Below, piece after piece: positions 8,700 through 32,181 of a DNA stretch of 64,000 nt. This DNA is from an uncultured Actinomycetota bacterium (GTDB lineage Bacteria; Actinomycetota; Humimicrobiia; Humimicrobiales; Humimicrobiaceae). The translations under genes were made by a program, and so were the position numbers. Location of the stretch: NCBI GenBank assembly GCA_964603595.1, contig CAZRVN010000004.1:148678-212677 (forward strand), read 5' to 3'. The notes beneath the pieces were generated by a model, which did no database searches, was not told where the DNA came from, and worked only from the letters and a program-made list of their open reading frames with translations. Positions within the stretch are counted from its first letter, which is position 1; each line of letters begins with the position of its first letter.

Positions 8700-9662
8700 T
8701 ACCTATCAAATTTAAAATTAGGCAATTATCCCTTGACATCACGTATATAATCTGGTATGATTATAGCATGATGAAAGATAAATTTACAATAAAAGACTTC
8801 AACAAAATGTATCCAGACGACAATGCTTGTCTTGATGAAATCTTTAACAATCGTTATGGTCATTTAAAATCATGTCCTTCCTGTAAAAAGAAAACTAATT
8901 TCTATAGAATAGAAAACCGTAAGGTCTATTCCTGTCAATACTGCGGTTATCAGATTAGCCCATTAGCCGATACCATATTTCATAAATCCTCTACTAGTTT
9001 AAAAGATTGGTTCTATTCTATCTATCTATTCTCTGTATCTAAAAATGGTGTTTCTGCTAAAGAGTTGGAACGTCAACTCGGAGTTACCTATAAATGTGCT
9101 TGGAGAATAGCCAAACAGATAAGACAACTGTTCAAACAGAATAAGGATTTATTGTCAGACATCATTGAGATTGACGAGACATATATCGGTGGTAAGCATA
9201 AAGGCAAAAGAGGTCGTGGCTCTGAAAATAAGACTCCGGTTGTGGGTTTAGCTCAACGAAAAGGGAACCTTAAAGCCAAAGTAGTTTCTAATACCAATTC
9301 CTATACCGTCCAGAATATAATGAGAGATAGTGTCCAACTTGGCTCAAATATTATGACTGATGAATATAGAAGCTATAATGTAGTAAGAAAATTAGGCTTC
9401 AATCATCAAACAGTCAGTCATTTCAAAGAACAATGGGCTAACGGTATAGCACACACCAACACAATCGAGGGCTTCTGGTCTCAACTAAAAAGGTCAATCA
9501 ATGGTACTTATCACTGTGTTTCCCCGAAGTATCTTCAGTCTTATGTTGACGAGTTTGTCTATCGCTATAATAATCGTCTTTCCCCTTTCCCGATTTTTCT
9601 AAGTCTGGTCTTATCGGCTGGGAAGCACGTTTAATTATCAATTTAAATTGCTTTTTATCTAC
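8700..9662 (+). mobile_element. IS1595-family insertion sequence with approximate boundaries. The terminal inverted repeats were not resolved.
   Basis: It is a single-transposase IS and is AT-rich. A TTGACA-N17-TATAAT promoter lies just upstream of the transposase ATG. Palindromic AATTTAAATT motifs sit near both flanks. I could not assign the ends confidently. Confidence 0.4.
8768..9634 (+). CDS. IS1595-family transposase, with an N-terminal zinc ribbon and a DDE domain
   Basis: CPSCKKK...CQYCG zinc-ribbon motifs are present. The IEIDETYIGGKHKGKRGRG...TDEYRSYN...GIAHTNTIEGFWSQLKR stretch matches the DDE_Tnp_IS1595 pattern. Confidence 0.8.
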   Translation: MMKDKFTIKDFNKMYPDDNACLDEIFNNRYGHLKSCPSCKKKTNFYRIENRKVYSCQYCGYQISPLADTIFHKSSTSLKDWFYSIYLFSVSKNGVSAKELERQLGVTYKCAWRIAKQIRQLFKQNKDLLSDIIEIDETYIGGKHKGKRGRGSENKTPVVGLAQRKGNLKAKVVSNTNSYTVQNIMRDSVQLGSNIMTDEYRSYNVVRKLGFNHQTVSHFKEQWANGIAHTNTIEGFWSQLKRSINGTYHCVSPKYLQSYVDEFVYRYNNRLSPFPIFLSLVLSAGKHV

Positions 9663-9676
9663 CATTTTTCTTATAT

Positions 9677-11938
9677 TTAAATAGAAAATTCAGAGAATTC
9701 TTCTTTAATTTTAAATTCAATACTTGTTATCTGTGAAGTATAATTTATTATTTTATGTATATTATCAGATATTTCCTTTTGGACATTCTTGTCTTTTGGT
9801 ATTGGTATAAGAATAGATTCAAAGACTTCTTTTCGGATTGATGGATAACCATTATTTAATAGCAATTTAGATGCATCAATGTTTAATAAACAAGCAAATA
9901 GATAGAGAGGTTTAATCCTATCGGCATGAGGTATTATACACGCAAAATGACTTACAACATATCCATCACAACCAAGAATCCCTCTATGATTTTTTAATAC
10001 AGTCTTTCCACTTTTCGGGAACAATATAGTCCCCTTGGGAAATTTATACAGATTCTCTATACCTCTTTCATTCAACTTATCTCTTGTTTTTATTAAATTA
10101 TAGGAAATATGTTCTCTTGCTAAATCTGATACTCTAAAGAATGGGTATACACCATCAGAAAATAACTCTGGATCCTGAGGCGCACTTTGTCCGAATTTTA
10201 TATCTGCTAATCTTGATAATGGGAAAGAATTAAAATCTTTTGACCTTAAACCCCTTTCTTCATAAATACTCTTTACCAACTGAAAACCTTTATTTTTAAT
10301 TTTATCTACCTCTAAAAAAGAAAATTCTATTCCATCAAGTAATTTGTCCAAATCATTATCCCCTTTTAAGGGTCTTCTGTAGTTATCTAGTGTAAAACCA
10401 TCATTCTTAACCTCGAAATACCATATTTTATTCTTTTTCTTGTTTTTAACTTTTATATATAGAATATTTGTCTTTTGTGGTGTATATGGTAGAAATACAC
10501 CATCGGGCAATGAGACTATTGTATGTAAGTCAAAATCCCTTATTATAAATTCTCTTTCTTTCCTATAAGTAGAATCGAAAAGAAAGCCTTCTGGAACAAT
10601 AATTCCGCACCTACTATTGTGATTAGCTTTATTTAGGGCTTTTAAACAATGTTGTATACAAATACTATCTCCGTTATCGGTTGGAAGATTATAAAAAGAA
10701 CCATGTGGCGTTTTGGTGGAAAAGGGTATATTAGTTATTACAATATCATATTTATTATCAATTGGGTTAACGAGACTATTAACTTTTTCTATATTGGAAT
10801 GACCATCCCCTATAAGTATCATATTCATTTTTGCAATTCTGGCAATGCTTGTTATTTCCCTTCCATATAATGATGATCTCTTCAAAACATTGATGGAATT
10901 TTCATTCTGTGGCATTGTACTTCTAATTTGCTTAAAAGATTCTGTGAGCATGCCGCCCGTTCCGCAAAATGGGTCGTATATAGTTTCACCAAACATTGGT
11001 CTCAGTAATTTAACCAAAGTCTTAATAATATGTCTTGGCGTAAAATATTGACCCAAATCATTATTATTACCACTACTATATGATTTTAAGAAATATTCAA
11101 AAGCATCTCCCTTTATATCGGTATTTGTATCGGTTAAATATAGAGGATCAATCATATCTATCAGATTTTTAAACGTATCAGGGTTTGTTATTTTAATATC
11201 CTCAAAAATACTCTTATCGTCAAACCTTTCCTTAAATTCCTTTAATACGACTTTTCCAACATAACTCAATAATTCTACAGGTCTTTTATCTCTAAAATAG
11301 TTCCACCTGTACTCAAGAGGAATATAATCTTTTTTACCACTATTTTCTTTTATTTCCTCTCTTTCGCTTATTAATTTCAAAAATAAAATATTGGCAAATT
11401 CGCTAAATCTTTCAACCCCAGCTTGTAGTCCTTCATCTCTAAGTAAGTCATTAGCTCTATCAAAAATTGAAATTAATTCTTTTCGAGAATTTATAACTTT
11501 TTTATCTAATGAAATATACTCATTATCATAAAGATAGTTTAATGCGAGTACTTCACTAATAAACTCTTCTACCTCCTCACCGTTTAAAAAGAGTGGTTTC
11601 TGTTTTTTTAAATGATATGTTTTTGTAAATACACCGTCAGTCGCATAAACTATCGGAGCGTCTATTTTTTGAGCATATAATACACCCTGTTTAATTGCTT
11701 TATCGATGTTTTCCTTAGGCTTTTTAGCTTCTATTATTATTAACGGCTCGTCTGATAATTTTCTATATAGAATATAGTCAGGCTTTAATCCACCTAATTT
11801 ATCATACTGCGTAGTAGTTTTGGGTTTTTGTTTGAAAACATTTCTTTGTGGACTTTGCGGATTATCATCCCAATTAAGATTTTTGAGTTGATTATCAACT
11901 AGAGTTTCTGTATCTCTTTCGTTTAATAAATTGCTCAT
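9677..11938 (-). CDS. Single-chain restriction-modification enzyme. It fuses a PD-(D/E)xK (HsdR_N/Mrr-like) nuclease domain, an N6-adenine DNA methyltransferase and an HsdS-like target-recognition domain (Type IIG-like).
   Basis: The N-terminus reads PDYILYRK...PLIIIEAKKP, a D...ExK nuclease motif. The middle carries methyltransferase motif I, YDPFCGTGGM, and a motif IV variant, DIVITNIPFS. The C-terminal roughly 180 aa resemble HsdS target-recognition domains. The total is 753 aa. Confidence 0.7.
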   Translation of the reverse strand: MSNLLNERDTETLVDNQLKNLNWDDNPQSPQRNVFKQKPKTTTQYDKLGGLKPDYILYRKLSDEPLIIIEAKKPKENIDKAIKQGVLYAQKIDAPIVYATDGVFTKTYHLKKQKPLFLNGEEVEEFISEVLALNYLYDNEYISLDKKVINSRKELISIFDRANDLLRDEGLQAGVERFSEFANILFLKLISEREEIKENSGKKDYIPLEYRWNYFRDKRPVELLSYVGKVVLKEFKERFDDKSIFEDIKITNPDTFKNLIDMIDPLYLTDTNTDIKGDAFEYFLKSYSSGNNNDLGQYFTPRHIIKTLVKLLRPMFGETIYDPFCGTGGMLTESFKQIRSTMPQNENSINVLKRSSLYGREITSIARIAKMNMILIGDGHSNIEKVNSLVNPIDNKYDIVITNIPFSTKTPHGSFYNLPTDNGDSICIQHCLKALNKANHNSRCGIIVPEGFLFDSTYRKEREFIIRDFDLHTIVSLPDGVFLPYTPQKTNILYIKVKNKKKNKIWYFEVKNDGFTLDNYRRPLKGDNDLDKLLDGIEFSFLEVDKIKNKGFQLVKSIYEERGLRSKDFNSFPLSRLADIKFGQSAPQDPELFSDGVYPFFRVSDLAREHISYNLIKTRDKLNERGIENLYKFPKGTILFPKSGKTVLKNHRGILGCDGYVVSHFACIIPHADRIKPLYLFACLLNIDASKLLLNNGYPSIRKEVFESILIPIPKDKNVQKEISDNIHKIINYTSQITSIEFKIKEEFSEFSI

Positions 11939-18749: not shown

Positions 18750-19346
18750 TTACTCAGCACCTTCCAGAATATATACCAGCCCATAATTTTCAAACACCCT
18801 TTTCATCTCCTTTTCCGCCTCTATAAAGAGTGCTTCCGTATCAAGATAGAGCTTTTCTATTTTTGGCTCATCAAATGTGGAATAATTTCCGCTTTCATAA
18901 TATGACAGCACAAGATTTATGGTTTCAATGTCACTATCAATAAATTCCAGTTCATAATTATAAAAAGTCTCAAGCGGGGCCGGGATATTCTCAATAAGGA
19001 GTAATTTTTCCCTGTAACCGGTTACCGCATCACGCCTTTTAGATGCAAGCTCTTTTAGCTGGCCTACGTTTATAAACTCGCTGTCAAGTTCTTCTGATAA
19101 TTCAACTGTCTTTTCAATAAATTCATCCTTAAGCGGCCTGAACTTTTGGTAATACTCTGCAATCTCCCTCGCTTCTTCTGACTTTATCTCTTCAAGCATC
19201 TCAATTTCCCGCCTTGCCTCTTCTTCCAACTCTCTGCGGTTTTCTATTTTCTGCATCTCCATGGAAAATACATTGTATATTACAAGTGCTATAATAATTA
19301 TAACCAGTATCAATGCAGCTAATTTTTCTTTATTTAACTTACTCAT
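18750..19346 (-). CDS. Sortase-associated membrane-anchored coiled-coil protein (copy 1). Function unknown.
   Basis: It has an N-terminal transmembrane segment and an E/R-rich heptad region (EEEARREIEMLEEIKSEEAREIAEYY). It lies directly downstream of sortase 1. It is clearly paralogous to the ORF at 23936-24514. Confidence 0.6.
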   Translation of the reverse strand: MSKLNKEKLAALILVIIIIALVIYNVFSMEMQKIENRRELEEEARREIEMLEEIKSEEAREIAEYYQKFRPLKDEFIEKTVELSEELDSEFINVGQLKELASKRRDAVTGYREKLLLIENIPAPLETFYNYELEFIDSDIETINLVLSYYESGNYSTFDEPKIEKLYLDTEALFIEAEKEMKRVFENYGLVYILEGAE

Positions 19347-19354
19347 TTAATCCA

Positions 19355-20170
19355 TTATTTAACCTCGATAGATGCTATTTTGAGGGGATATATATTTATA
19401 AGTTCTGATATTAATACAATCCTCTCAGCTGCAGAATATTCCGGGTGGCATGAAGTAAGCAAAAGCTCTTTTTTACCAGTACCTTCCAGAATATATACAT
19501 CCTCTGGACCGACTATTTCCAATTCACTGACAGCATAGATAAAAGTCCCGCTTTCTGTCGTTTCAAGATAAATCAGGTCACCTTCAAGAAGTTCATCTAT
19601 CCTATTAAAGGGTGAGCCGTAAGTAGTCCTGTGACCGGAAATAGTGCACCTTCCGGTATCACCCGGAAGCGGGGTTCCCTCAATATGCCCCGGCCCACTT
19701 GTTAAAGTCAGTATGTCAGCCCCCTCGTTTACTATCCGCTCCAGCTTAATTCTGGGGATCTTAATCTTCAACGGGAAAAAGTCTTCCGCAGTTAGATTAC
19801 TGTAGTCTAATATTTCCCTACCAATATCAAAGCCAATTTCAATATCCCCGTAATCTGCAGTGTCCCGGCTGACGGACCCTTCCAGGGTTTTACCATCTTT
19901 AACGCTATCCTCTGAGGCAGTATTTTCTGAAGTGGTTCCAGAATCCCCTGCCAGCCCGGTTGTAGTGGCCCCCTCCTCTGATAGAGCCGCTTCCTGTGAT
20001 CCCCACTTTGATAAAATATCTTCCTGTCTCAATGTTGTTATGATATTTATATACAAGGGATATAATAAAAATAATATTACCGCGAAAGCTGCTAGAAACA
20101 ACGTTACCTTAATTATTCTTGACACTTTGACTTTTGAAAACTTTACTTTTTTCATATCATCAGGACGCAA
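19355..20170 (-). CDS. Sortase (copy 1)
   Basis: It has an N-terminal transmembrane anchor. The catalytic triad context is conserved, with His in GHRTTYG, Cys in LLLTSCHP (the TLxTC motif) and the following Arg. Confidence 0.8.
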   Translation of the reverse strand: MRPDDMKKVKFSKVKVSRIIKVTLFLAAFAVILFLLYPLYINIITTLRQEDILSKWGSQEAALSEEGATTTGLAGDSGTTSENTASEDSVKDGKTLEGSVSRDTADYGDIEIGFDIGREILDYSNLTAEDFFPLKIKIPRIKLERIVNEGADILTLTSGPGHIEGTPLPGDTGRCTISGHRTTYGSPFNRIDELLEGDLIYLETTESGTFIYAVSELEIVGPEDVYILEGTGKKELLLTSCHPEYSAAERIVLISELINIYPLKIASIEVK

Positions 20171-22100: not shown

Positions 22101-22195
22101 TATATTCCCTCCTATTACCTTATGATACATAAACCCTTCCCGTATCATTTTTAAATTGTGCAACAAATTATACAACAATACTGGTTAAAATATAA

Positions 22196-22346: not shown

Positions 22347-22979
22347 ATGAATCAAGTTAAAAAAATTAAAAAACTGGAAAATCTCAGCTATTTTAATAAA
22401 GATACCATATCGCAGTTTGTTGATATAAATAAAAACGCTCTTTCGCAAGACGTTAAGAGATGGATTCAAAATGGTACTTTAATACAGCTAAAAAAGGGGT
22501 TTTATGTTACCTCAAATTATTTTGAAAGACTGGGAAACAAAACTCCATACCTTGAATTTATATCAAACAAACTGAGGGAGCCGTCATATCTAAGTCTGGA
22601 ATATATTTTACAAAAATACGGAGTATTAACGGAATCAATCTATTCTATTAATTCCATAACCATCAAATCAAGTAGAATATATAGAAACAATCTTGGTCTT
22701 TTTATATACAGGAATATAAAAGATGAGCTTTTTACAGGTTTTAATATCACGGAAAAAAATGGCTTTATAGTTAAGGAATCTACAAAAGCCAAGGCCCTTT
22801 TTGACTGGCTCTATTTAAGAATGTTAAGATTTAAAAAAATAGACCTTGCTGTGATGGAATCATTCAGATTGAATCTTGAAAACTTTAAGAAAAAAGATTT
22901 TAAGGAATTTAAAATATATTGTGAGCTTGCAGGTATAAAAAAATATTTAAAACTTGCAGAGATAATTAAAAAAATATAA
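22347..22979 (+). CDS. abiEi: AbiEi-like antitoxin/transcriptional regulator (type IV TA / abortive infection)
   Basis: 210 aa. It lies directly upstream of a DUF1814/AbiEii-family nucleotidyltransferase gene with a 10-nt gap. Its size and position fit AbiEi. Confidence 0.6.
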   Translation: MNQVKKIKKLENLSYFNKDTISQFVDINKNALSQDVKRWIQNGTLIQLKKGFYVTSNYFERLGNKTPYLEFISNKLREPSYLSLEYILQKYGVLTESIYSINSITIKSSRIYRNNLGLFIYRNIKDELFTGFNITEKNGFIVKESTKAKALFDWLYLRMLRFKKIDLAVMESFRLNLENFKKKDFKEFKIYCELAGIKKYLKLAEIIKKI

Positions 22980-22989
22980 CTGCTATAAA

Positions 22990-23841
22990 ATGATTTATAG
23001 AGAACTAGAAAAAATATTAATCGAAGAAAGAGACAGAGGCTCGCATGATGCTTATATCCTTAACTTATTAAAGGAGTATCTTCAGGTATATGTACTCTAC
23101 TTTATCTATACAAATTCTAAATATAATAAAAATCTTATTTTTACCGGCGGCACCTGCCTAAGACATTTTTATAATCTGCCGAGACTTTCAGAAGACATAG
23201 ATTTTGATTTTAAGGAGAATTTTGACCGTAAGATTTTGCTTGATGACCTTGAAGAATATTATAAAAAAAGATATAAGTATAATGAAATAAAGCTGGCTTT
23301 AAAGCAGCGCGGAGAACAGATATTGCTAAAGTTTCCAGTTTTACATAAACTGGGTCTGGCAGAAGAAGATAAAAGCAATCTGCTATTTGTAAAGCTCGAT
23401 TTTTCAGTAAACCCATCAAAATACTTTAACCTCGAGACTACTTCAAAATCCATTTATGGTTTTAATTTTGCGGCAGTTCATTATGACCTGTCTTCCCTTA
23501 TGTCCGGCAAAATACACGCTATTTTGGTAAGAAAAATATTTAAGGGTATCAATAATACCGAAGTGATTAGAGGCAGGGATTATTTTGACCTCCTATGGTT
23601 CTTAAAAAAATCTATCAGACCCAATCTAAAAAGACTTTCAGAAATGCTTGGCACCAGCATTAGCATGAATTTTCTTGTAAAACAACTGGATTTAAAAGTT
23701 AAGGAGCTTGCCAGGAAACATAAGTCATTTTTAAAATCTGACATTGCCCCACTTATAAGCAGCCCTGATTTTATAAAAATCTATGTGGATAATTATTACG
23801 AGGAATACATGAGAAATAAAAAGAATCTCTTCCAGGAATAA
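22990..23841 (+). CDS. abiEii: AbiEii/AbiGii-family nucleotidyltransferase toxin
   Basis: It carries LIFTGGTCLRHFYNLPRLSEDIDFDF, the GG[ST]xL and [DE]x[DE] nucleotidyltransferase motifs typical of AbiEii (DUF1814). The product is 283 aa. Confidence 0.7.
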   Translation: MIYRELEKILIEERDRGSHDAYILNLLKEYLQVYVLYFIYTNSKYNKNLIFTGGTCLRHFYNLPRLSEDIDFDFKENFDRKILLDDLEEYYKKRYKYNEIKLALKQRGEQILLKFPVLHKLGLAEEDKSNLLFVKLDFSVNPSKYFNLETTSKSIYGFNFAAVHYDLSSLMSGKIHAILVRKIFKGINNTEVIRGRDYFDLLWFLKKSIRPNLKRLSEMLGTSISMNFLVKQLDLKVKELARKHKSFLKSDIAPLISSPDFIKIYVDNYYEEYMRNKKNLFQE

Positions 23842-23935: not shown

Positions 23936-24514
23936 TTACTCAAAAAGATATCTCATCTCATATTGTCTGCATACATTATATAACTCTTCCTCAGCCCTCT
24001 GGTAAAGCAAACCGGTTTTCAGGTAAAGCTCATTTAAGATACTGCTATTATATGTTGAGTAGCTTTCACTGTCATAATATGAAAGCACAAGCCCGATGGT
24101 TTCAATATCGCTTTTTATAAATTCAAGCTCATAGTCATGGAAAGTTTCAAGCGGGGAAGGGACGCTCTCAATCATAAGAAATTTATCCCTGAATGCAATT
24201 GCAGCATCAAGCCGGCGAGATACAAGCTCTTTTATCCGGTCTATATTTACAAACTCGCTTTCCATCTCTTCTGATAATTCAATCGTTTCTTTGATAAATT
24301 CATCCCTGGCAGGCTCAAACTCAAGATAATATTCTACAACCTCTCTCGCTTCTTCTAACTTTATCTCCTCAAGCATCTCCCTTTTGAGCCGTTCTTCTTC
24401 TCTGGCTTCTCTCTCTGCTGCTATCTTCCCGTGTTCAACAAGGATAACATTAAGACCGACCAGAATAACTGCTGCTAAAAGAATTACAAGGGCTATTTTA
24501 CTTTTTCCTTTCAT
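23936..24514 (-). CDS. Sortase-associated membrane-anchored coiled-coil protein (copy 2)
   Basis: It is paralogous to the ORF at 18750-19346 (AEREAREEERLKREMLEEIKLEEAREVVEYY). Its start overlaps the sortase 2 stop by 4 nt (ATGA). Confidence 0.6.
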   Translation of the reverse strand: MKGKSKIALVILLAAVILVGLNVILVEHGKIAAEREAREEERLKREMLEEIKLEEAREVVEYYLEFEPARDEFIKETIELSEEMESEFVNIDRIKELVSRRLDAAIAFRDKFLMIESVPSPLETFHDYELEFIKSDIETIGLVLSYYDSESYSTYNSSILNELYLKTGLLYQRAEEELYNVCRQYEMRYLFE

Positions 24515-25230
24515 TTCACCCCTCCATAAATATCCAGACCCATCGGATAGAGATTCAGGAGCTCAGAGATTACAACCAGTCTTTTCGCACCGGAATATTT
24601 CGGATGGCAGGTTGTAAGCAAAAGTTCCTTCTTATATGAGCCCTCAAGTATATATACATCTTCGGGGCTAACGATATCCATACCTGTAACAGCATACACG
24701 AATAATTCCTCCTTAATAGTTTCCAGATAAATAAGGTCTCCTTCTTCAAGCTCATCAATCCTGTTAAAAGGCGAGCCGTAAGTCGTTCTGTGGCCGGATA
24801 TCGTACACCTCCCGGTATCTCCGGGAAGCGGCGTTTCAGAGATATGGCCGGGCCCCTGCTCTAGGGATTGGGGTTCCGCCCCCTCCCAGGAAACAAGCTC
24901 AAGGCCTATCCGCGGGATAGTCAGTTTCGCAGGAAAAAAATCCCCCGATGTTAATGCACTATAATCCAGGCCGCCATTAATCTCATATTGTGCACCACCG
25001 CCGGAAGTGTTAAAAGTCTCCATGTCTGCTTCCGCACCACTGCTATCTTCGTCTGCTTTTTCTTCTTCAAGTAAAGCTTCTTTACCTTCCTCCCACTGTG
25101 ATAAATAAGACGCCCTTTCCTTTTCGGTTAAAATATTTGAATAAATAAGGTAAAAAAGAAATGACACAGTCAGTACAGCAAAAATACAAAGCAGAATAAT
25201 CTTTATTTTTTGTTTCCTGGTTTTATCCAT
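24511..25230 (-). CDS. Sortase (copy 2)
   Basis: It has a transmembrane anchor and the motifs GHRTTYGSPFNRIDEL and LLLTTCHP. It is about 75 percent identical to sortase 1 across the catalytic domain. Confidence 0.8.
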   Translation of the reverse strand: MDKTRKQKIKIILLCIFAVLTVSFLFYLIYSNILTEKERASYLSQWEEGKEALLEEEKADEDSSGAEADMETFNTSGGGAQYEINGGLDYSALTSGDFFPAKLTIPRIGLELVSWEGAEPQSLEQGPGHISETPLPGDTGRCTISGHRTTYGSPFNRIDELEEGDLIYLETIKEELFVYAVTGMDIVSPEDVYILEGSYKKELLLTTCHPKYSGAKRLVVISELLNLYPMGLDIYGGVK

Positions 25231-25287
25231 CTGCCACTCAGTTAAATTTTAGAGAAAATTATATCCCAATAGAGTTAAAGTTAAAAT

Positions 25288-25320
25288 AAAATAGCCCGGA
25301 CAATATGCCCGGGCTATTTT
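25288..25320 (-). terminator. Intrinsic terminator downstream of the LPFTG protein gene
   Basis: AAATAGCCCGGACAATATGCCCGGGCTATTT forms a perfect stem flanked by an A-tract and a T-tract. It lies 23 nt after the stop codon. Confidence 0.7.
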
Positions 25321-25342: not shown

Positions 25343-28300
25343 TTACTTCCTTCTGAACTTCTTTTTCAGTGAAGCTATGAACATTGCCAGTCCACCCAGT
25401 ATTATGGAAACACCGGATATTGGAATAGCAGGATTCATTCCAGTGAATGGAAGTTCCGTAATACCCAATACCTCTATCCCACCATCAGGAGGTGTCTTGG
25501 AGTTAGTTCTGCTGAAACTATGGTTTCTCTTAGCCGAATTAACTTCTATTCCAGTAATATCACTCATTTTTGAATAACCTGACGGCACGGTAGTTTCTAC
25601 AATTCTGTAGGTACCGAATGGGAGATTTCCCCAGCTTACAGTACCATTTCCGGTTATCTTCTTTTCTCCGCCAACTGCAGCACCATTTGAATCATACAGG
25701 GTAAATCCTGCAACATCGGTAGAGTCAAGCCCGCTCTTTGTAAGGGTTACCGAACCACGATAGCTAACCTTTTTCGTGTTTTCTCTGTCAAAGGTGTAGC
25801 TCTGCTGGCCTTCATTTCTGGAATCAATAACTATTCCGGTAATATCTGCTATAGTATTATATCCGGAAGGAGTGGTTGTTTCCTTTATTGAGTATGTATC
25901 CCACTCAAGATCCGTCCAGACAACCGAACCGTTACCTGTTACCGTCTTTTCTCCTCCTACAGGATTATTACTTGAATCATACAGTGTAAATCCTGCAGTA
26001 TCATCATAATCAAGACCGCTCTTATTAAGTGTTATATCTCCAGGTATCCTCGGGTCAGCTATTTCCTGCGTAAGGATAACATTCGGAGTTTCGCTATTCA
26101 AACCAAATACAAACTCACCGATAGGCGGATTCCCGAAAAGCAGATATCCCGCTGGAGCACTTGCTTCTACCACTTTATAAGTTCCATATGGCAAGTCTAT
26201 CCATTTGTAGTGGCCATCAGGACCAAGGATCTGTGTATCAACCAGAATCCATGAACCCTCTCTATACAATTCAAATGTTGATCCGCCAAGAGGCAGCCCT
26301 GTAACAGCATCAGTCTTGAATATTTCAATGGAGCCCTTCTCGGCACAGTTCTCTATAACTACGGGAACTTCTGCACCTATATCACCTTCAATTGTTCCTG
26401 ACCATACCGGATTAGAAACTGTGTAGGTATATAAATTGGTTATTCCATTAAAGTCTTCAAGTATGTAGTAATCACCATAAGGAAGGTCTATCCAGCTTGC
26501 AGTTCCGCCGTTTGATACTGTCTGCGGTGAAGTAGCGATCAGGTTATCACTAGAATCATACAGTGACAGATTTGCCTCATCGTCTCCTTCAAGCCCTATC
26601 TTTGTAACTGTAATGGAGCCCTTCTCTGCAGTGTTTACCACTTCGACCGTAGGATTTTCGTTATCCGGACCGATAACTACCGGGTCGGATGATAGGTCTG
26701 TTGTGTAAGTAAATACGTTACCTGAAGGATAACTCTCTGTTAGGGTATAAGAGCCAAATGGAAGGTCAATCCATCCACCTGTTCCACCTTCACTCAGAGT
26801 GATATCAGTATAAGGGCCACCAGGGCCAGAAAGTGAGAATATTGCCTGGTCGCTCTCTTCCAGTCCAGTCTTGTGAACCGAAATGGAACCCTTCTCGGCA
26901 GTATTAGTTATAGTATCAGTTTCATCACCATCAACAGTGATATTAGCTACCGGATTAGAAACCGTATAGGTATATACGTTGGTTATTCCATTAAAGTCTT
27001 CAAGTATGTAGTAATCACCATAAGGAAGATCTATCCAGCTTGCAGTTCCGCCGTTTGATACTATCTGCGGTGAAGTGGCAATCAGGTTATCACTAGAATC
27101 ATACAGCGAAAGGTTTGCCTGATCATTACCTTCAAGACCTGTCTTTGTAACTGTAATTGAACCCTTCTCGGCAGTGTTGACTACCTCAATCGTCGGCCAT
27201 GTATTATCCGGGCCAATTATTATAGGATCGGACGAGAGGTCTGTTGTGTAAGTATATACGTTACCAGACGGATATGTTTCGGTTAAAGTGTAGCTACCAT
27301 ATGGCAGTTGTTGCCAGTGAATACTTCCATGATTCCATATCGACGCACCACCATAAGATACTCCGCCTGGGCCTGTAAGTGTAAAGGTCGCCCTATCGCT
27401 TCCCTCAAGACCTGTCTTGTGGACCGTAAGGTCGCCCATCTCGGCAGTGTTAGTTATGGTGTCAGTCTCATCACCATCAACGGTAATGTTTGCAACAGGA
27501 TTAGAAACCGTATAGGTATAGACGTTGGTTATTCCATTAAAGTCTTCGACTATATAGTAGCCGCCGTAAGGAAGGTCTATCCAGCTTGCCAATCCACCAT
27601 TTGATACTGTCTGCGGTGAAGTGGCAATCAGGTTATCACTAGAATCATACAGTGAAAGGTTTGCCTGATCATTACCTTTAAGACCCATCTTTGTAACCGT
27701 AATGGAGCCCATCTCGGCAGTGTTAGTTATGGTATCAGTTTCATCACCATTAACGGTAATATCAGCAACAGGATTAGAAACCGTATAGGTATATACGTTG
27801 GTTATTCCATTAAAGTCTTCGACTATATAGTAGCCGCCATAAGGAAGATCTATCCAGCTTGCCAATCCACCATTTGATACTGTCTGTGGTGAAGTGGCGA
27901 TCAGGTTATCACTAGAATCATACAGCGAGAGGTTTGCCTCATCGTCTCCTTCAAGACCTGTCTTTGTAACTGTAATGGAGCCCAAAGGACAATCTACGAT
28001 ATCTTCAACTGCATTTAATGCGCCACCTGTCATGAATAATGCGGTTCCTCCGATATAAACAGTATAAGTAGCCGTATCAACGGCGTATCCCGGAGGAGCA
28101 CTTTCTTCAGTTAACGAATATGTACCCCATGGCAGTCCATCTATAAATGCATTGCCATCCACATCTGTGGTTAAAGTATATTCCGTTACATCAGGTGTGA
28201 AAGTCTGGCCGCCGATATAGGTCAGCTTGTATACCGCACCTTCAACCGGACCCTGGGTCTCGGAATCAGTCTTGTTAAGCTCAAAGCTTCCCCATGCAGT

Positions 28301-29704
28301 ATAAGTGCCGGAATCGTCATCACACGGCTCACTGTAGCTTTCTATAACGAATCTCTGGTCGTATGCTTCGGGGTATGTGATTTCCTCATCATGCCATTCC
28401 CTATCTTCAAAGTAGTAGCCAGCAGGTTTGGTAACCGAAGGGGCACCATTTTCCCAATGACTCCATACTATACCAGTCTCTTGTGTCCAGTATGTACCTA
28501 TCCAAACATCTTCATACGTCCCATAAATTCCGTCCTGTCCCTGTTTTTCAGTAACTACCATCTTACCGGCATTGAAATAGTCAATATCCACATTATCCGG
28601 ATTTTCAGTAATTACATCTCCATTTACGTCAGTTGCAACTATATGCGGGGAATTATAAGATCCCGGATCCTCTGTATCATCATAATCAGGATTTTCAATA
28701 GTCTGTATAACATTCATATTTGAATTGAACTCATCAAGGTCTTCTCCCTGTTCCTTGTCAATCTCTCCATCCTCATCAATATCAAGACATGCGCCTATGT
28801 TAACAGACATTTCCTCAAATTCGGAATAACCTTCTCCCCACCAGTAGAAATAGTATGGGATGCTTGCAAAACCGTAATTATCATCGGTTATCGCGCCATC
28901 GCCATCGGTATCCTCGGCATTACTGCCGTCATTATCATCCTCGTAATCATACATAGTGGAAGTAGTTTCAAGTACAAGGTCCGTCTGTGAAAAACTGACA
29001 TTATATGAACCCAAGAGCACATACCAGGAAACAGTTTTACCTTCATCGGTAATACCCGGAACCAGAGGATTTTCCATTGTAGCAGTAGCTTCAAATTCAT
29101 TATAATCGCCATTTTCATCTACCAGAGTATCCGCATCAAGGGCCACTTCTACTTCATTTACATTTTCATCATCCAGATATTCCTGCAACGACACGTCATT
29201 ACTAGGATCAGTATCATTGTTTTCAGGCAGTGCGACAAAACCATCTGCCATGGTCATAACTGCAAGTACTACTTCTTCCACATCATCATTAGGAGTGTAG
29301 TCCACATTATTATCTATTATATCCCACACAGCATCCTGATTTTGACCATCGGTAGCACCTGTAGCAGTTGTTGCCATGATCTCGGCTGCCTCAGCATTTA
29401 CTTCATCAACACCATTTGCCTGAAGCTCATCCGATACATCCGTACCTGTTTCGCTGTAAGCATCCGTAGCGTCGGTCAAGGTTACATCTTCATCCACACA
29501 ATAAACATCCATCTCTTCACCTGCAGGCGCCTCCTCAGGTTCATCGGAATAATCAGCATCATTAGGATCCATTTCATATTGGCCATTATCCGGTCCTTCT
29601 GCAGTTGAATTATCACCGGGTTCACCAAATAGGAAAGATGGTGCTGTGAAGAATACGATAAGAACAATCCCCAGGCATAACGCCATAAGTCTTTTTAATT
29701 TCAT
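25343..29704 (-). CDS. Giant sortase-anchored surface protein. It has a signal peptide, an acidic region, tandem Cna-B/SpaA-like domains and an LPFTG sorting signal.
   Basis: 1453 aa. The signal peptide reads MKLKRLMALCLGIVLIVFFTAPSFLFG. The N-terminal 300 aa are D/E-rich. SpaA-type motifs TYxxxExxAPxGY occur (TYKVVEASAPAGY, TYRIVETTVPSGY). The C-terminus reads ELPFTGMNPAIPISGVSIILGGLAMFIASLKKKFRRK, which is a sorting motif, a transmembrane segment and a basic tail. Confidence 0.85.
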   Translation of the reverse strand: MKLKRLMALCLGIVLIVFFTAPSFLFGEPGDNSTAEGPDNGQYEMDPNDADYSDEPEEAPAGEEMDVYCVDEDVTLTDATDAYSETGTDVSDELQANGVDEVNAEAAEIMATTATGATDGQNQDAVWDIIDNNVDYTPNDDVEEVVLAVMTMADGFVALPENNDTDPSNDVSLQEYLDDENVNEVEVALDADTLVDENGDYNEFEATATMENPLVPGITDEGKTVSWYVLLGSYNVSFSQTDLVLETTSTMYDYEDDNDGSNAEDTDGDGAITDDNYGFASIPYYFYWWGEGYSEFEEMSVNIGACLDIDEDGEIDKEQGEDLDEFNSNMNVIQTIENPDYDDTEDPGSYNSPHIVATDVNGDVITENPDNVDIDYFNAGKMVVTEKQGQDGIYGTYEDVWIGTYWTQETGIVWSHWENGAPSVTKPAGYYFEDREWHDEEITYPEAYDQRFVIESYSEPCDDDSGTYTAWGSFELNKTDSETQGPVEGAVYKLTYIGGQTFTPDVTEYTLTTDVDGNAFIDGLPWGTYSLTEESAPPGYAVDTATYTVYIGGTALFMTGGALNAVEDIVDCPLGSITVTKTGLEGDDEANLSLYDSSDNLIATSPQTVSNGGLASWIDLPYGGYYIVEDFNGITNVYTYTVSNPVADITVNGDETDTITNTAEMGSITVTKMGLKGNDQANLSLYDSSDNLIATSPQTVSNGGLASWIDLPYGGYYIVEDFNGITNVYTYTVSNPVANITVDGDETDTITNTAEMGDLTVHKTGLEGSDRATFTLTGPGGVSYGGASIWNHGSIHWQQLPYGSYTLTETYPSGNVYTYTTDLSSDPIIIGPDNTWPTIEVVNTAEKGSITVTKTGLEGNDQANLSLYDSSDNLIATSPQIVSNGGTASWIDLPYGDYYILEDFNGITNVYTYTVSNPVANITVDGDETDTITNTAEKGSISVHKTGLEESDQAIFSLSGPGGPYTDITLSEGGTGGWIDLPFGSYTLTESYPSGNVFTYTTDLSSDPVVIGPDNENPTVEVVNTAEKGSITVTKIGLEGDDEANLSLYDSSDNLIATSPQTVSNGGTASWIDLPYGDYYILEDFNGITNLYTYTVSNPVWSGTIEGDIGAEVPVVIENCAEKGSIEIFKTDAVTGLPLGGSTFELYREGSWILVDTQILGPDGHYKWIDLPYGTYKVVEASAPAGYLLFGNPPIGEFVFGLNSETPNVILTQEIADPRIPGDITLNKSGLDYDDTAGFTLYDSSNNPVGGEKTVTGNGSVVWTDLEWDTYSIKETTTPSGYNTIADITGIVIDSRNEGQQSYTFDRENTKKVSYRGSVTLTKSGLDSTDVAGFTLYDSNGAAVGGEKKITGNGTVSWGNLPFGTYRIVETTVPSGYSKMSDITGIEVNSAKRNHSFSRTNSKTPPDGGIEVLGITELPFTGMNPAIPISGVSIILGGLAMFIASLKKKFRRK
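26317..27982 (-). repeat. Tandem near-identical repeats of about 280 bp inside the surface-protein gene
   Basis: Protein-level units of about 92 aa (GSITVTKTGLEG.D.ANLSLYDSSDNLIATSPQTVSNGG.ASWIDLPYG.YYI.EDFNGITNVYTYTVSNPVA.ITV.GDETDTITNTAE) recur four times. They are interleaved with two copies of a related B unit. Long stretches are visibly identical at the nucleotide level. Confidence 0.8.
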
Positions 29705-29754
29705 ATCCTTTCACCTCCCAATAATAAACACATATTGATTATTTTATTTTTCAT
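29701..29754 (-). other. Possible 17-codon upstream ORF (MKNKIINMCLLLGGERI) translationally coupled to the surface-protein gene
   Basis: A GGGGG RBS sits 8 nt upstream of its ATG. Its TGA stop overlaps the main ATG in an ATGA arrangement. Confidence 0.25.
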
Positions 29755-30060
29755 TATTTTTTCCCCCTCTTTATTTTAGGTTAATTTATTATTTAAAACC
29801 GACCCCCATAGCCAGTTGAGTTATTTTTAAAAATCCCTATATAAATACAAAAACCGACTACATTTAGTCGGTTTCGCTATTTGCTCCTCTTTTCTCAAGC
29901 GTCCAAATTAGAGAAAAGCATCAAAGCTACTAAATCAAAAATTAAGCTATTTCTTCCTTTGCTCTCTATTCAATAAAAGTATTTTATAAATTTTATATAA
30001 CTATAATATTTAAGTGATGAAATTATACTACATCTTTAAGAAAAATACCAAACTTTTTTT
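29705..30060 (-). promoter_or_regulatory. Promoter plus structured 5' leader (copy 1 of a duplicated ~200-bp element) upstream of the LPFTG protein gene
   Basis: On the minus strand there is a -35/-10-like pair near 30040-30010. Hairpin B (CTTTTCTC...GAGAAAAG, 29888-29918) comes next. Hairpin A (CCGACT-N6-AGTCGG, 29854-29871) follows and is trailed by UUUUU. Confidence 0.5.
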
Positions 30061-30177
30061 ATAAAACTGTTATTTTAATAAAACTATAGTCAGACATTTT
30101 TTATATATCTATAATACAATATTCTAATTATAAAATGCCCTTATATTAAAATCACCTTATAATTTATTACTTATATC

Positions 30178-31248
30178 CTAAAAATCCACTTCAACTCCCG
30201 CATCCCTTAATTCATCTACCTGGCTTTCATCTGCAACAGGATTGCCTTTAATATAAAGCTTCTGTAAATTCGGAAGTTCCTTTAAAGCTGAGATGTCTGT
30301 TATTTCATTATCTTCCAGCCAGAGTGATTCAAGGCTTTTAATCTTTGAAAGTGATGAAATATCAGATATCTTATTCTTTGAAAGAGCCAGCTGCTTTAGA
30401 TTTTCCAACTCTGCCAGCGGTGATATATCTTCTATCTCACACTCGCTGAGACTTACAATCTCTAATTTTTCCATTTCACCCAGCGCTGATATATCTGATA
30501 ACGGGTTATTGCCCAGCATAATTAATACAAGATTAGATAAGCTTGATAACGGGCTGATATCTGATACATTATTGTTAGCCAGGGAAAGGTTCTTTAGATT
30601 TTTTAATTCAGATATAGCGCCAACATCTGCTATCTGGTTCCTGTTTAAACCCAGAACCTCTAAATTAGTAAGTTCTAATAAAGAGGGGATATCTACAATC
30701 AGATTATTATCCAGAACAGCCACCTTTAATTTATCAAGACCTATTAATGGAGAGATGTCTAATATTTCATTTTTGCCCAGACTGACACTTTCTAAATTTA
30801 CTAAATCCTCAAGCGGTCCTATATCTGTTATTTTATTATCATTCAGCCCGAGATTTGCAAGACTGTTAATATTAGAAAGAGGTGATATGTTACTGATTAG
30901 ATTACCATTTAGATTTAATATACGTAGTTTTGTAAGTTTTGACAGGGGTGATATATCAGTTATTTCATTATTGTTTAAACTTAGATTTTCTAAGTTTACA
31001 GCATCTTCAACGCCTGAGATAGTTTTTATCTCCATATTGTCTGCAAATAATTTATCCATTGACTCCATATCTTCAGCGCTTATTTCTTCACCGGTTATGC
31101 CCAGCTCTTCCTTCTCAGCTTTTAAAAGGTTCGGGTCGCTTGCTCTCTTAAATAAACTGCATCCCGGAATACTAACTGATATAATTAACGCTAAAATAAA
31201 TACCGGTGCTGCATAAATAAATTTTTTCATATATATCTTATGTTCCAT
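30178..31248 (-). CDS. Leucine-rich-repeat (internalin-like, 22-residue LRR) lipoprotein
   Basis: About 12 tandem LRRs of the form NLxxLxLxxNxIxDISPLxxLxxL are present. The N-terminus MEHKIYMKKFIYAAPVFILALIISVSIPGC is a signal peptide with a lipobox Cys. The track ORF start at 31341 would read through a terminator hairpin and is rejected. Confidence 0.75.
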   Translation of the reverse strand: MEHKIYMKKFIYAAPVFILALIISVSIPGCSLFKRASDPNLLKAEKEELGITGEEISAEDMESMDKLFADNMEIKTISGVEDAVNLENLSLNNNEITDISPLSKLTKLRILNLNGNLISNISPLSNINSLANLGLNDNKITDIGPLEDLVNLESVSLGKNEILDISPLIGLDKLKVAVLDNNLIVDIPSLLELTNLEVLGLNRNQIADVGAISELKNLKNLSLANNNVSDISPLSSLSNLVLIMLGNNPLSDISALGEMEKLEIVSLSECEIEDISPLAELENLKQLALSKNKISDISSLSKIKSLESLWLEDNEITDISALKELPNLQKLYIKGNPVADESQVDELRDAGVEVDF

Positions 31249-31429
31249 TTGAAATTTAAATAAAAAAAACCGACTGCATTTAGTCGGTTTCGCTACTTGC
31301 TCCTCTTTTCTCAAAGCGTCCAAATTAGAGAAAAGTATCAAAGCACCTAAATTAAAATAAATATTTTAATATCTAAATTATTATATTTTTATAACGGGAT
31401 TATATTACATTTTTTACTAAAATGTCAAA
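31231..31429 (-). promoter_or_regulatory. Promoter plus structured 5' leader (copy 2 of the duplicated element) upstream of the LRR lipoprotein gene
   Basis: The minus strand carries TTGACA (31429-31424) and a TATAAT-like -10 (31404-31399). Hairpin B is next. Hairpin A (31270-31287) comes next, followed by eight U residues that end about 14-30 nt before the start codon. Confidence 0.55.
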
Positions 31430-31548
31430 CTTTTCTTATAAAATAATTTTTTTTAAGCTTTTACTGCAGCAACCGTTGAATTAAGAAACTATAATCCAGT
31501 ATCAATCCTTATTTTATTATTAACAATAATAATGATAATATTTCCCCT

Positions 31549-32181
31549 ATGAAAATAAAAAAATTCTATAAAAAACATAAAATAAAAATTATAAGATACA
31601 CCGGAATAGCCCTGATAATAATGGGGCTTTCGGTTATAATATGGCCCTTCTACACCAGCTTTATCATGGCAAGAAGAGAACTGGATATACTCTCCTCATG
31701 GGAAGAAGAAACGGAATTAACCGGCGGTGAAAAAGGTGATGGAATAAATGGAAAGCTTGAAAAAGAAAATATTCCCGTTGATACAGAGAAAAAAGTCCCT
31801 TTCAGGATTACAATCCCCGATATTGAGCTGGACTGGATTGTCAATAAAGGAACCGACTACGCAACTTTAAGAAAAGGACCGGGCTATTACATATCCTCTG
31901 CTCTCCCGGGCGAAGAAGGCACCTGCCTTGTGGCCGGTCACAGGACTACCTACGGTGCTCCCTTTAATAGACTGGGTGAGCTTGAAGAAGGTGACGAAAT
32001 AATAATAGAGACAGAAGGTAACGAAAAATTCACCTATATAGTTACGGGTATGGAAGCTGTACTCCCCACTGACATGTCTGTCCTTGAAAATACTGATTAC
32101 CCTTCCCTGGTGCTGTCAACCTGTACACCAAAATATTATGCCACGAGAAGACTTATAATATATGCAAGGATTGCAGAATAA
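31549..32181 (+). CDS. Sortase (copy 3)
   Basis: It has a transmembrane anchor and the motifs AGHRTTYGAPFNRLGEL and LVLSTCTP, followed by the conserved Arg. The product is 210 aa. Confidence 0.8.
   Translation: MKIKKFYKKHKIKIIRYTGIALIIMGLSVIIWPFYTSFIMARRELDILSSWEEETELTGGEKGDGINGKLEKENIPVDTEKKVPFRITIPDIELDWIVNKGTDYATLRKGPGYYISSALPGEEGTCLVAGHRTTYGAPFNRLGELEEGDEIIIETEGNEKFTYIVTGMEAVLPTDMSVLENTDYPSLVLSTCTPKYYATRRLIIYARIAE

Follow-up and report, generated by a model that had tools for sequence, protein, structure and literature searches.

Two genes for different surface proteins lie one behind the other on the minus strand of this locus, each preceded by a related leader, and the question is whether that leader is a new kind of regulatory RNA or a familiar one in an unfamiliar genome. 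In the window (the whole stretch of 64,000 nucleotides that was analyzed), an initial annotation had described a duplicated promoter and structured leader, probably undescribed and not recognized as any known riboswitch class. This suggestion of novelty proved wrong. In an Rfam cmscan of the whole window, both minus-strand copies matched RF01786 (c-di-GMP-II) along the full model (positions 1-84 of 84), with scores that exceed the gathering score of 53.5: copy 2, an 85-nt aptamer at 31273..31357 with its conserved positions kept, scored 61.9 bits (E 2e-11), and copy 1, an 84-nt aptamer at 29857..29940, scored 57.9 bits (E 3e-10), a margin of 4.4 bits only over the gathering score. These matches rule out a new riboswitch class. 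The c-di-GMP-II class goes back to Lee et al. (Science 2010, cited in PMC11477304), and its control of sortase-anchored adhesins is well documented in Clostridioides difficile (PMC6200980, PMC11477304). Neither the Rfam scan nor a covariance model of our own (R1) found copies beyond these two in the window, where a pattern of the conserved core occurred twice, compared with no occurrence in 100 shuffles. With E values of up to 10 allowed, 29600..31700 yielded no GEMM (c-di-GMP-I) match, and the window as a whole had none at the gathering score. We conclude from the sequence that the modules are two copies of an already described class II c-di-GMP riboswitch, with no new RNA class or mechanism.

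Alignment of the two copies bore out the annotated identity of about 90% over the first 95 nt of the plus strand, with 87/96 columns (90.6%) identical across aptamer and terminator (the 3' 96 columns of the transcribed strand); the aptamers alone are 91-92% identical. The looser relatedness out to about 200 nt was also confirmed: the promoter block is 76% identical (38/50, where our own estimate for random sequence at such an AT content, used as the yardstick, is ∼34%), and the leader between promoter and aptamer only 31%, with a 34-nt indel in copy 1. The two copies resemble each other more closely (92%) than either resembles the positional orthologue in the nearest listed relative (86%). Modules 1 and 2 probably arose by recent duplication or gene conversion, promoter included. 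The duplication is no assembly artifact, because two independent metagenome assemblies, L001 (Logan) and L002 (JGI), encode the identical LRR protein, and in both its gene has copy 2 on one side and the beginning of copy 1 on the other.

The fold of these aptamers was assessed against a family sample of at least 128 homologues from other genomes, among the matches listed, which a covariance-model search retrieved with a search pattern that fixed UUGG (positions 35-38) and CCGA (70-73), the two strands of a candidate second pseudoknot helix, in every sequence. In the window copies, P1 has a core of 6 bp (AUUUAG/CUAAAU), P2 consists of GC/GC plus, at its base, a U-A pair (copy 2) or an A.A mismatch (copy 1), and P3 is an 8-bp helix, CUUUUCUC/GAGAAAAG, in both. 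P3 is what had been annotated as a conserved stem-loop B; the hairpin, CUUUUCUC-N14/15-GAGAAAAG, is indeed present in both copies, but it is only the inner helix of a larger aptamer. Across the listed homologues, P1, P2, and P3 are ∼90% paired (range, 80-96%) versus 30-46% with slid partners, both sides change at 19-21 of the 22 helix pairs, and the helix covariation score is 0.63-0.67 versus 0.17 after shuffling, a value reached in 0/500 shuffles. The window copies show almost no covariation between each other because their aptamers are 92% identical. The P3 loop (39-42) forms a pseudoknot with the P2-P1 junction (64-67), in which C40, G41, and C42 pair with G64, C65, and G66 in both copies and the fourth pair, 39-67, is an A.A mismatch in both. 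In the listed family members, pair 41-65 is G-C in 49, A-U in 19, and unpaired in 0, and pair 39-67 is G-C in 32, A-U in 18, U-A in 9, and something else in 9; the pseudoknot covaries even though the covariance model used for the alignment does not contain it. A K-turn between P2 and P3, recognized by sequence only, reads GC-UUU-GA-U...A-GGA-GC in both copies (a bulge of 3 nt and then G.A and A.G in tandem), a motif documented for the crystal structure 3Q3Z in PMC4316175. Its G19, A20, G55, and A56 are kept in the window copies, and G19 and A20, which the search pattern did not force, are invariant in 127/127 listed members. We take the family assignment, the helices, and the pseudoknot as established, together with the overlap of aptamer and terminator to which we now turn.

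A terminator scan of 29600..31700 found two terminator-like sites only, one per module. The expression platform of copy 2 (31258..31291, minus strand) is GAAACCGACU-AAAUGC-AGUCGGUUUU followed by a U-run that reaches about 31262, with its stem at 31291..31266 (-13.6 kcal/mol, z -4.2); that of copy 1 (29845..29875, minus strand) is GAAACCGACUA-AAUG-UAGUCGGUUUU followed by UGUAUUU, with its stem at 29875..29850 (-14.9 kcal/mol, z -5.5). The annotated stem-loop A with its U-run is therefore present in both copies, but its stem is longer than had been described and overlaps the aptamer, so that it is no independent module. The 5' arm, AAACCGACUA, comprises nucleotides of the ligand pocket (AACCG) and the 3' strand of P1 and occupies aptamer positions 67-76, and the terminator fold is more stable than the P1-enforced fold by 10.5 kcal/mol in copy 2 and 12 kcal/mol in copy 1. 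Because the terminator arm overlaps both pocket and P1, the ligand-bound fold and the terminator are mutually exclusive, and an ON switch is predicted. A ligand-sensing leader with a terminator platform is the riboswitch-type geometry that had been proposed for this locus, and this part of the proposal is supported. The terminator is kept in 13/13 listed copies of the clade, where it is 91.6% paired, and one compensatory change (A-U to G-C) ties aptamer position 73 to the terminator 3' arm. Covariation in the clade is weak, with this one compensatory pair, because the aptamer freezes the 5' arm; our argument for the predicted terminator is one of conservation, not of covariation. Across the family, the aptamer-overlapping layout was found in 61/124 sampled family members among the matches listed. 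We also considered a leader-peptide attenuator and rejected it: Phe_leader (RF01859) scored 26.6 bits (E 0.11), where its gathering score is 55, the match came from the terminator alone, and no leader ORF precedes the terminator.

These features suggest how the switch would operate. At low c-di-GMP, the nascent RNA would fold into the more stable terminator hairpin, AAACCGACUA paired with UAGUCGGUUU and followed by the U-run, and transcription would end short of the LRR-lipoprotein gene in the case of copy 2 and of the LPFTG adhesin gene in the case of copy 1. When c-di-GMP is high, binding of the ligand would lock the aptamer, made up of the AU-rich P1, P2, the K-turn, P3, and the loop-to-junction pseudoknot; the locked aptamer would sequester AACCG and CUAAAU, the 5' arm of the terminator, allowing the polymerase to read through and both surface proteins to be made. 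We consider it highly likely that the sigma-70-type promoter, the short AU-rich leader, the class II aptamer, and the overlapping terminator together constitute a c-di-GMP ON switch for both genes, in which c-di-GMP binding, the ON direction, and the use of the promoters are predicted from sequence.

The module 2 promoter, predicted from consensus matches only, is TTGACA-18-TATAAT at 31399..31428 (minus strand), matching at 12/12 positions as the initial annotation had indicated, and its predicted transcription start lies ∼35 nt upstream of the aptamer. The module 1 counterpart, TTGGTA-18-TATAAT at 30022..30051 (minus strand), matches at 10/12. The gene behind copy 2 (30178..31230, minus strand) encodes a probable lipoprotein of 350 aa with leucine-rich repeats (LRR_4, E 6e-51; LRR_8) and a signal peptide ending in ...SIPGC. 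Its start codon is ATG 31230 or an in-frame ATG farther upstream (31248), 13-31 nt past the U-run; no obvious Shine-Dalgarno sequence is visible, and there may be an added translational component at this gene. The gene behind copy 1 (25343..29704, minus strand) encodes an adhesin of 1453 aa with a signal peptide, repeated SpaA/prealbumin-fold domains (SpaA, E 1e-66, in four stretches), and an LPFTG signal with membrane anchor at the C terminus (...ELPFTGMNPAIPISGVSIILGGLAMFIASLKKKFRRK). Its ATG at 29704 lies 146 nt past the end of the copy 1 terminator stem (29850) and has its own strong ribosome-binding site; the distances to both start codons agree with those first annotated. Past the end of the adhesin gene, the sequence shows a strong intrinsic terminator at 25283..25317 (minus strand), AUAGCCCGG-loop-CCGGGCUAU with UUUAUUUU behind it, which probably closes the transcription unit under riboswitch control. 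The stretch from the LRR gene to module 1 had no detected terminator, so that read-through may link the two units in part. Very probably, two separate promoters, each with its riboswitch, co-regulate two different surface genes.

Sortase genes lie on both sides of this array. One, divergent and beside module 2 (31549..32181, plus strand; Sortase, E 2e-33), is outside riboswitch control and encodes a candidate anchoring enzyme for the LPFTG protein; a second (24511..25230, minus strand; Sortase, E 3e-29) lies directly downstream of the adhesin gene, past its terminator. Pfam scans of most larger ORFs found no GGDEF, EAL, or HD-GYP genes in the 64-kb window, and it is the relatives only that point to c-di-GMP metabolism in this genome. 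The host also has Wood-Ljungdahl genes, CODH/ACS included.

The closest listed relatives are syntenic low-GC metagenome-assembled genomes (MAGs) labeled Actinomycetota, with 80-84% protein identity. RF01786 was assigned to at least 13 riboswitch copies in at least 10 of these close-relative loci, plus one in a further locus (L019). In one syntenic locus (L035), the gene behind the riboswitch encodes a SpaA/LPFTG adhesin homologous to the one here (32% identity, E 1e-57); the SpaA adhesins of the relatives bear LPFTG or LAFTG signals, and homologues of the divergent sortase gene beside module 2, of 62-68% identity, adjoin the riboswitch in three loci (L035, L040, and L085). In another locus (L071), the riboswitch precedes a gene for a 7TM-PAS-GGDEF-HD-GYP protein, and close sequence similarity to that locus indicates the same target in two more (L078 and L084). 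The presence of this GGDEF-HD-GYP gene behind the riboswitch indicates that the lineage uses c-di-GMP. Family-wide, 83 of the 115 downstream ORFs among the matches listed have signal-peptide-like N termini by a crude heuristic, and the downstream genes include those for pilins or prepilin-like proteins, lipoproteins, and LPXTG proteins.

One rival reading is that the fold is the same but the ligand is different. The ligand contacts that PMC7288161 lists for 3Q3Z are A13, A14, U37, G39, U60, A61, C68, A69, A70, C71, C72, G73, and A74; the offset to Rfam numbering (-1) was inferred from the register of AACCG. On this numbering, about 8-9 of these 13 nucleotides are identical in both copies, namely U36, G38, A60, A68, A69, C70, C71, and G72, plus A73 in one count. 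Positions 13 and 59 differ from the listed contacts and vary across the sampled family, the A14 equivalent (position 13) being identical in copy 1 only. The ligand-contacting A13 equivalent, position 12, reads U in copy 1 but G in copy 2, and the C68 equivalent, position 67, is A in both, which is why it cannot pair with A39. GEMM-Ib, which senses cGAMP, and the variant families that Rfam places in the same clan (c-di-GMP-II-GAG and c-di-GMP-II-GCG) offer analogies, and such clade substitutions (U or G at the A13 equivalent and the A.A at 39-67) might have retuned the same fold to some related nucleotide or to a different cyclic dinucleotide. In 71% of the listed members position 12 is A, and lower-scoring matches to other families of clan CL00127 overlapped both copies, so that variant models recognize them too. 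However, in a competition between the models, RF01786 scored best at each window copy and in every listed relative, and the eight identical contacts that form the pocket core are unchanged relative to the listed ones. G at position 12 (18% of listed members) and A at position 67 (27%) are ordinary family variation, although U at position 12, as in copy 1, is rare (2%). Moreover, the same clade variant controls the GGDEF/HD-GYP gene in the relatives, which fits c-di-GMP. We therefore regard another ligand as very improbable. Equally slight is the chance that the copies are a subtype specific to the clade of low-GC Wood-Ljungdahl MAGs labeled Actinomycetota (non-A at the A13 equivalent and often an A.A pseudoknot end) with altered ligand affinity or specificity, for example, another threshold or another cyclic dinucleotide. 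If this were true, the two switches in series (module 2 and the LRR gene, then, with no terminator between, module 1 and the adhesin gene) would give an uncultured, deep-branching lineage a circuit that grades surface display by two thresholds.

An RNA that binds c-di-GMP could also act by a route other than termination, either mainly on translation or by yielding a terminated small RNA that acts in trans. Terminated riboswitch fragments acting in trans exist in other classes, SreA and SreB of Listeria being examples; about half of the sampled family has no terminator that overlaps the aptamer and must rely on a different platform; and the copy 2 U-run ends close to a start codon with no visible Shine-Dalgarno sequence. 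Nonetheless, both copies have a textbook intrinsic terminator and U-run that competes with the aptamer and is conserved in the clade, and the copy 1 start codon, ∼146 nt past the terminator stem with its own strong ribosome-binding site, is one that the aptamer cannot mask. Class II switches in C. difficile also act on transcript abundance (PMC6200980). To this route, we give a small chance. A simple promoter duplication with a fortuitous hairpin and no RNA function would be compatible with the near absence of covariation between two almost identical aptamers and with the duplication of the promoter along with them. Yet both copies are full-length RF01786 matches above the gathering score, and the pattern is not that of two paralogues lacking covariation, because hundreds of compensatory changes in homologues from more than 120 unrelated genomes have left the fold intact, the unmodeled pseudoknot included. 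The terminator is also kept throughout the listed clade copies, and the divergence of the leader to 31% while the aptamer stays at 91% points to selection on the RNA. We consider a functionless duplication extremely improbable, and a c-di-GMP ON switch acting through transcription termination is the reading that we retain.

The closest parallels to this switch are in C. difficile, where all four class II switches are ON switches and two drive sortase-anchored adhesins (PMC6200980, PMC11477304). As with Cdi-2-3 (CD2831, a collagen-binding adhesin) and the CD3246 switch, an RF01786 aptamer precedes a sortase-anchored LPXTG-type adhesin (PMC6200980, PMC11477304), the ON direction here being a prediction, and in both organisms several copies per genome would co-regulate surface display with c-di-GMP. 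The window differs from C. difficile in its host, an uncultured low-GC lineage with Wood-Ljungdahl genes whose nearest syntenic genomes are labeled Actinomycetota; in its LRR lipoprotein target, a type outside the targets given in PMC6200980 and PMC11477304; and in its two adjacent modules that share a duplicated promoter. Neither a counter-regulated protease of the PPEP-1/ZmpI type nor a class I riboswitch is seen in the window. The CD3246 switch acts via a group I ribozyme, which the window copies do not. Cdi-2-4 (pilA1, type IV pili) is likewise a class II switch with a terminator-type platform in front of a surface adhesion structure, with ON predicted for the modules here, but the target in the window is no pilus operon; many members of the family sample, too, are followed by prepilin-like genes. 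The Bc2 riboswitch of Bacillus thuringiensis has a class I (GEMM) aptamer, whose fold is unrelated to that of class II. Like the module 1 switch, it lies in the 5' UTR of an adhesin gene, that of the collagen adhesion protein Cap, and it relieves repression as c-di-GMP rises (PMC4933901). As far as the C. acetobutylicum structure 3Q3Z is described in the papers that cite it (Smith et al., PNAS 2011; cited in PMC4316175 and PMC7288161), the window copies share P1-P3, the K-turn, the pseudoknot/triplex, and the AACCG pocket strand with it, and they differ at the A13 equivalent (U/G), at the C68 equivalent (A, giving A.A and not a G-C pseudoknot pair), and at the P2 base pair.

For the family, the LRR lipoprotein is an addition to the gene types found behind class II switches, and low-GC MAGs labeled Actinomycetota use these switches repeatedly, for adhesins and for a GGDEF/HD-GYP enzyme. 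A possible use, with little beyond annotation, lies in annotating such MAGs and in finding c-di-GMP regulons outside Firmicutes. For the organism, these data suggest that an uncultured anaerobe very probably uses c-di-GMP to time the display of a giant, sortase-anchored adhesin with SpaA repeats and of an LRR lipoprotein, following the planktonic-to-attached logic established in C. difficile.

Read on the minus strand, the two modules share one layout: a promoter, a structured segment, a hairpin with a U-run and then a gene. In module 2, promoter and terminator scans located a TTGACA-18-TATAAT promoter (31428..31399) and the stem of the hairpin with U-run (31291..31266), and the conserved structured segment lies at 31357..31273; the 350-aa LRR protein starts at 31230 (alternative in-frame ATG at 31248). 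In module 1, the same scans put the promoter (TTGGTA-18-TATAAT) at 30051..30022 and the hairpin stem at 29875..29850; the structured segment spans 29940..29857, and a 1453-aa protein starts further on, at 29704. The terminator scan found no terminator-like sites in 29600..31700 other than the two module hairpins. In pairwise alignments, the structured segment plus terminator is 90.6% identical between the copies (96 columns) and the promoter block 76% identical (50 columns), and the leader between them is only 31% identical, with a 34-nt insertion in copy 1. Two independent metagenome assemblies contain the LRR gene in identical form, with copy 2 on one side and the first part of copy 1 on the other, which rules out an assembly artefact. 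The two related segments, promoters, stem-loops and U-runs described in the initial annotation are all present; its stem-loop A is indeed a hairpin followed by a U-run, but the stem is longer than was written.

We scanned the whole window with Rfam 15 at gathering thresholds and the module region again in a second, permissive scan. There were exactly two matches in the whole window at gathering thresholds, both to RF01786, the cyclic-di-GMP-II riboswitch aptamer (gathering score 53.5 bits), and both spanning model positions 1-84 of 84: copy 2 (31357..31273, minus strand) at 61.9 bits and copy 1 (29940..29857, minus strand) at 57.9 bits. The permissive scan of the module region gave no credible match beyond these two. 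In the Rfam alignment, what had been called stem-loop B (CUUUUCUC/GAGAAAAG) is helix P3; P2 lies outside it (GC/GC plus one further pair), the K-turn consists of a UUU bulge followed by G19 A20 opposite G55 A56, and P1 is outermost, with the core AUUUAG/CUAAAU. The variant families c-di-GMP-II-GAG and c-di-GMP-II-GCG belong to the same Rfam clan as RF01786. Overlapping clan matches at the window copies scored lower and were left out by the scan, so that canonical RF01786 wins at both copies and in every relative, as judged by model competition. Both copies are almost certainly c-di-GMP-II aptamers, a class described by Lee et al., Science 2010 (reference 91 of PMC11477304). The initial annotation was correct in seeing a real regulatory RNA, which both the Rfam scan and the covarying fold bear out; its suggestion of a probably undescribed element of no known riboswitch class is excluded by two full-length matches above the gathering score, and the element is an ordinary addition to an established class.

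A degenerate pattern based on the conserved core was run over GTDB representative genomes, giving at least 120 loci, and 128 homologues from the listed loci were aligned with a covariance model built from the two window copies, using nested helices only and leaving out the pseudoknot. The alignments showed that the fold covaries across the 128 homologues from other genomes among the matches listed: standard pairs filled 90% of cells at the proposed pairs versus 30-46% when partners were slid 1-3 columns, and the covariation score was 0.63-0.67 versus 0.17 in shuffles, with 0/500 shuffles reaching the observed score. The two freely varying pairs of the pseudoknot, which joins the P3 loop with the P2-P1 junction, also covaried cleanly among these matches. 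In Rfam numbering, pair 41-65 was G-C in 49 sequences, A-U in 19 and unpaired in 0, and pair 39-67 was G-C in 32, A-U in 18, U-A in 9 and unpaired in 9 in one alignment, with similar figures in a second. Because the pseudoknot is absent from the covariance model, the alignment cannot lean towards it. Both window copies pair C40 G41 C42 with G64 C65 G66 and leave A39.A67 unpaired. G19 and A20 of the K-turn, which the search pattern left free, are invariant in 127/127 sequences among the matches listed.

In the Clostridium acetobutylicum aptamer structure 3Q3Z, c-di-GMP is contacted by A13, A14, U37, G39, U60, A61, C68, A69, A70, C71, C72, G73 and A74 (review PMC7288161). The register of the AACCG strand suggests that crystal and Rfam numbering are offset by one, and under this offset U36, G38, A60, A68, A69, C70, C71, G72 and A73 are kept in both copies. 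All pocket differences sit at positions variable within the family. P2 pair 13-59, a variable position, differs in the window copies from 3Q3Z; pseudoknot position 67 is A in both copies (C 60, A 35 and U 33 in the family sample, among the matches listed); and at bulge position 12 copy 2 has G where copy 1 has U (A 91, G 23, C 8 and U 3 in that sample). The U of copy 1 is the one unusual feature; combined with the A.A mismatch that this copy has at the base of P2, it accounts for the lower Rfam score there.

The full terminator stem (GAAACCGACUA-loop-UAGUCGGUUUU; -13.6 to -14.9 kcal/mol, z -4.2 to -5.5) takes as its 5' arm aptamer positions 67-76, comprising the pocket strand AACCG and the first bases of the P1 3' strand, and because this arm is shared, the aptamer and terminator folds cannot coexist. 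The minimum-energy fold of a 101-nt transcript combines P2, P3 and the terminator, and enforcing P1 costs 10.5-12 kcal/mol in a nested-pair energy model; since the terminator fold is cheaper, the RNA should terminate without ligand. Without ligand, then, the terminator would form and transcription would end before the downstream gene, and with ligand, stabilized P1 and pseudoknot would block the terminator and allow read-through. We infer both c-di-GMP binding and this ON direction at the window locus, and it is likely that both copies work as ON switches through their terminators. In the closest clade, 13/13 copies have this hairpin and U-run (91.6% paired; matches listed), and one A-U to G-C compensatory change among these 13 couples aptamer position 73 to the terminator 3' arm. 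By a simple heuristic, 61/124 sampled family members among the matches listed have a terminator starting within 10 nt of AACCG.

In Clostridioides difficile, each of the four class II riboswitches raises downstream transcripts 4- to 43-fold at raised c-di-GMP (PMC6200980), and the literature classes them as transcriptional ON switches (PMC6200980, PMC11477304); our ON prediction agrees with these experiments. The closest known systems are those before CD2831 and CD3246, which encode sortase substrates, and pilA1, with which the window switches have riboswitch family, logic and target type in common. The differences are modest: the host lineage, an LRR lipoprotein as one target, two adjacent modules with a duplicated promoter in common, and a few family-tolerated substitutions at the pocket periphery.

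The copy 1 leader has several further features. About 30 nt past its terminator lies a second, weak hairpin (29797-29817, minus strand; AACUGGCU-AUGGG-GGUCGGUU, then UUAAAU; -7.7 kcal/mol, z -2.4), whose 3' arm resembles the terminator 3' arm (AGUCGGUU) and which may be a duplication remnant or a weak back-up terminator. Between terminator and adhesin gene is a 17-codon upstream ORF (29701-29754, minus strand; MKNKIINMCLLLGGERI) that carries a strong ribosome-binding site (AGAGGGGGAAAAAAUAAUG). The stop codon of this ORF and the start codon of the adhesin gene overlap (AUGA), an arrangement suggestive of translational coupling. The relative L035 lacks the ORF, and only 45 nt separate its riboswitch from the start of the adhesin. 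A further feature maps to 29941-30016 (minus strand): in the minimum-energy fold of the full copy 1 leader, the P1 5' strand (UGAUUUAG) pairs with an upstream AU-rich segment, which could be an extra anti-P1 element of low stability in the 34-nt insertion, absent from copy 2.

Both targets are predicted surface proteins. The 1453-aa adhesin behind copy 1 combines a signal peptide with numerous SpaA/prealbumin-fold repeats (Pfam E 1e-66) and carries an LPFTG sorting signal and membrane anchor at its C-terminus, and its gene is followed by a strong terminator. The LRR protein behind copy 2 has a signal peptide ending ...SIPGC and is probably a lipoprotein. The scan of 29600..31700 detected no terminator separating the LRR gene from module 1, so read-through from module 2 would meet the second switch. 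Pfam identified flanking sortase genes at 31549..32181 (plus strand) and 25230..24511 (minus strand); counting the former, there are three sortase genes within 13 kb. Paralogous pairs at 23936-25230 and 18750-20170 (both minus strand) each consist of a sortase gene and, directly after it, one for a 192-198-aa membrane-anchored Glu/Lys-rich protein with no Pfam match. Adjoining the third sortase is a gene for a 654-aa protein with AMMECR1 and GH127-like domains (20214-22178, minus strand); a 48% identical homologue occurs in an Actinomycetota MAG (L019:147-2959), where the same gene pair lies beside a c-di-GMP-II riboswitch, and the window gene has none beside it, the only RF01786 matches window-wide being the two copies. 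The rest of the window (GC ~37%) is ordinary chromosome, with CODH/ACS Wood-Ljungdahl genes, FolD, LepA, MurJ, LigA, GatAB, LeuRS and TsaBDE, and Pfam scans covering most of the larger ORFs of the 64 kb gave no GGDEF, EAL or HD-GYP gene. Amid this housekeeping region, mobile or defence-type genes lie at 8768-11938 and 22347-23841: by Pfam, the first stretch holds an IS1595-family transposase (8768..9634) and a fused type I restriction-modification methylase/specificity protein (9677..11938). The second, immediately past the downstream end of the adhesin-sortase cluster, holds an AbiEii toxin gene and a partner ORF upstream of it (22347..23841).

The best-scoring homologues among the matches listed come from low-GC "Actinomycetota bacterium" MAGs (L040, L035, L085, L118, L084, L115, L078, L071, L060 and L049), and three relatives are syntenic with the window (FolD 84% identical, pterin-binding protein 78-81%, divergent sortase 62-68%). 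The window copies share 92% identity with each other, against 86% with L040, whose copy is the positional orthologue of copy 2. This pattern suggests a recent duplication or conversion in which the promoter would have been included. The L035 locus has two riboswitch copies as well, one preceding a 620-aa SpaA/LPFTG adhesin homologous to that of the window (32% identity, E 1e-57), and the switches of L060 and L116 lie ahead of SpaA proteins bearing LAFTG signals. Two or three copies of the core pattern often lie within a few hundred bases (e.g., L005, L022, L024, L036, L043, L059, L060, L068 and L104). The core pattern was seen in Trueperaceae, Chloroflexota, Actinomycetota, Bacilli and Patescibacteria/CPR MAGs, a spread far beyond Clostridia that is at least this wide among the matches listed from GTDB representatives. 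By a rough heuristic, signal-peptide-like N-termini were found in 83/115 sampled first downstream ORFs (matches listed), which include prepilin-like proteins, lipoproteins and LPXTG proteins. The c-di-GMP-II riboswitch of L071 (5068-5151) has this terminator platform too and lies ahead of a 7TM-PAS-GGDEF-HD-GYP gene; by close sequence similarity, the same holds for L078 and L084. This gene indicates that the lineage makes and degrades c-di-GMP, and its position implies that in these related MAGs c-di-GMP turnover would be feedback-controlled by c-di-GMP itself.
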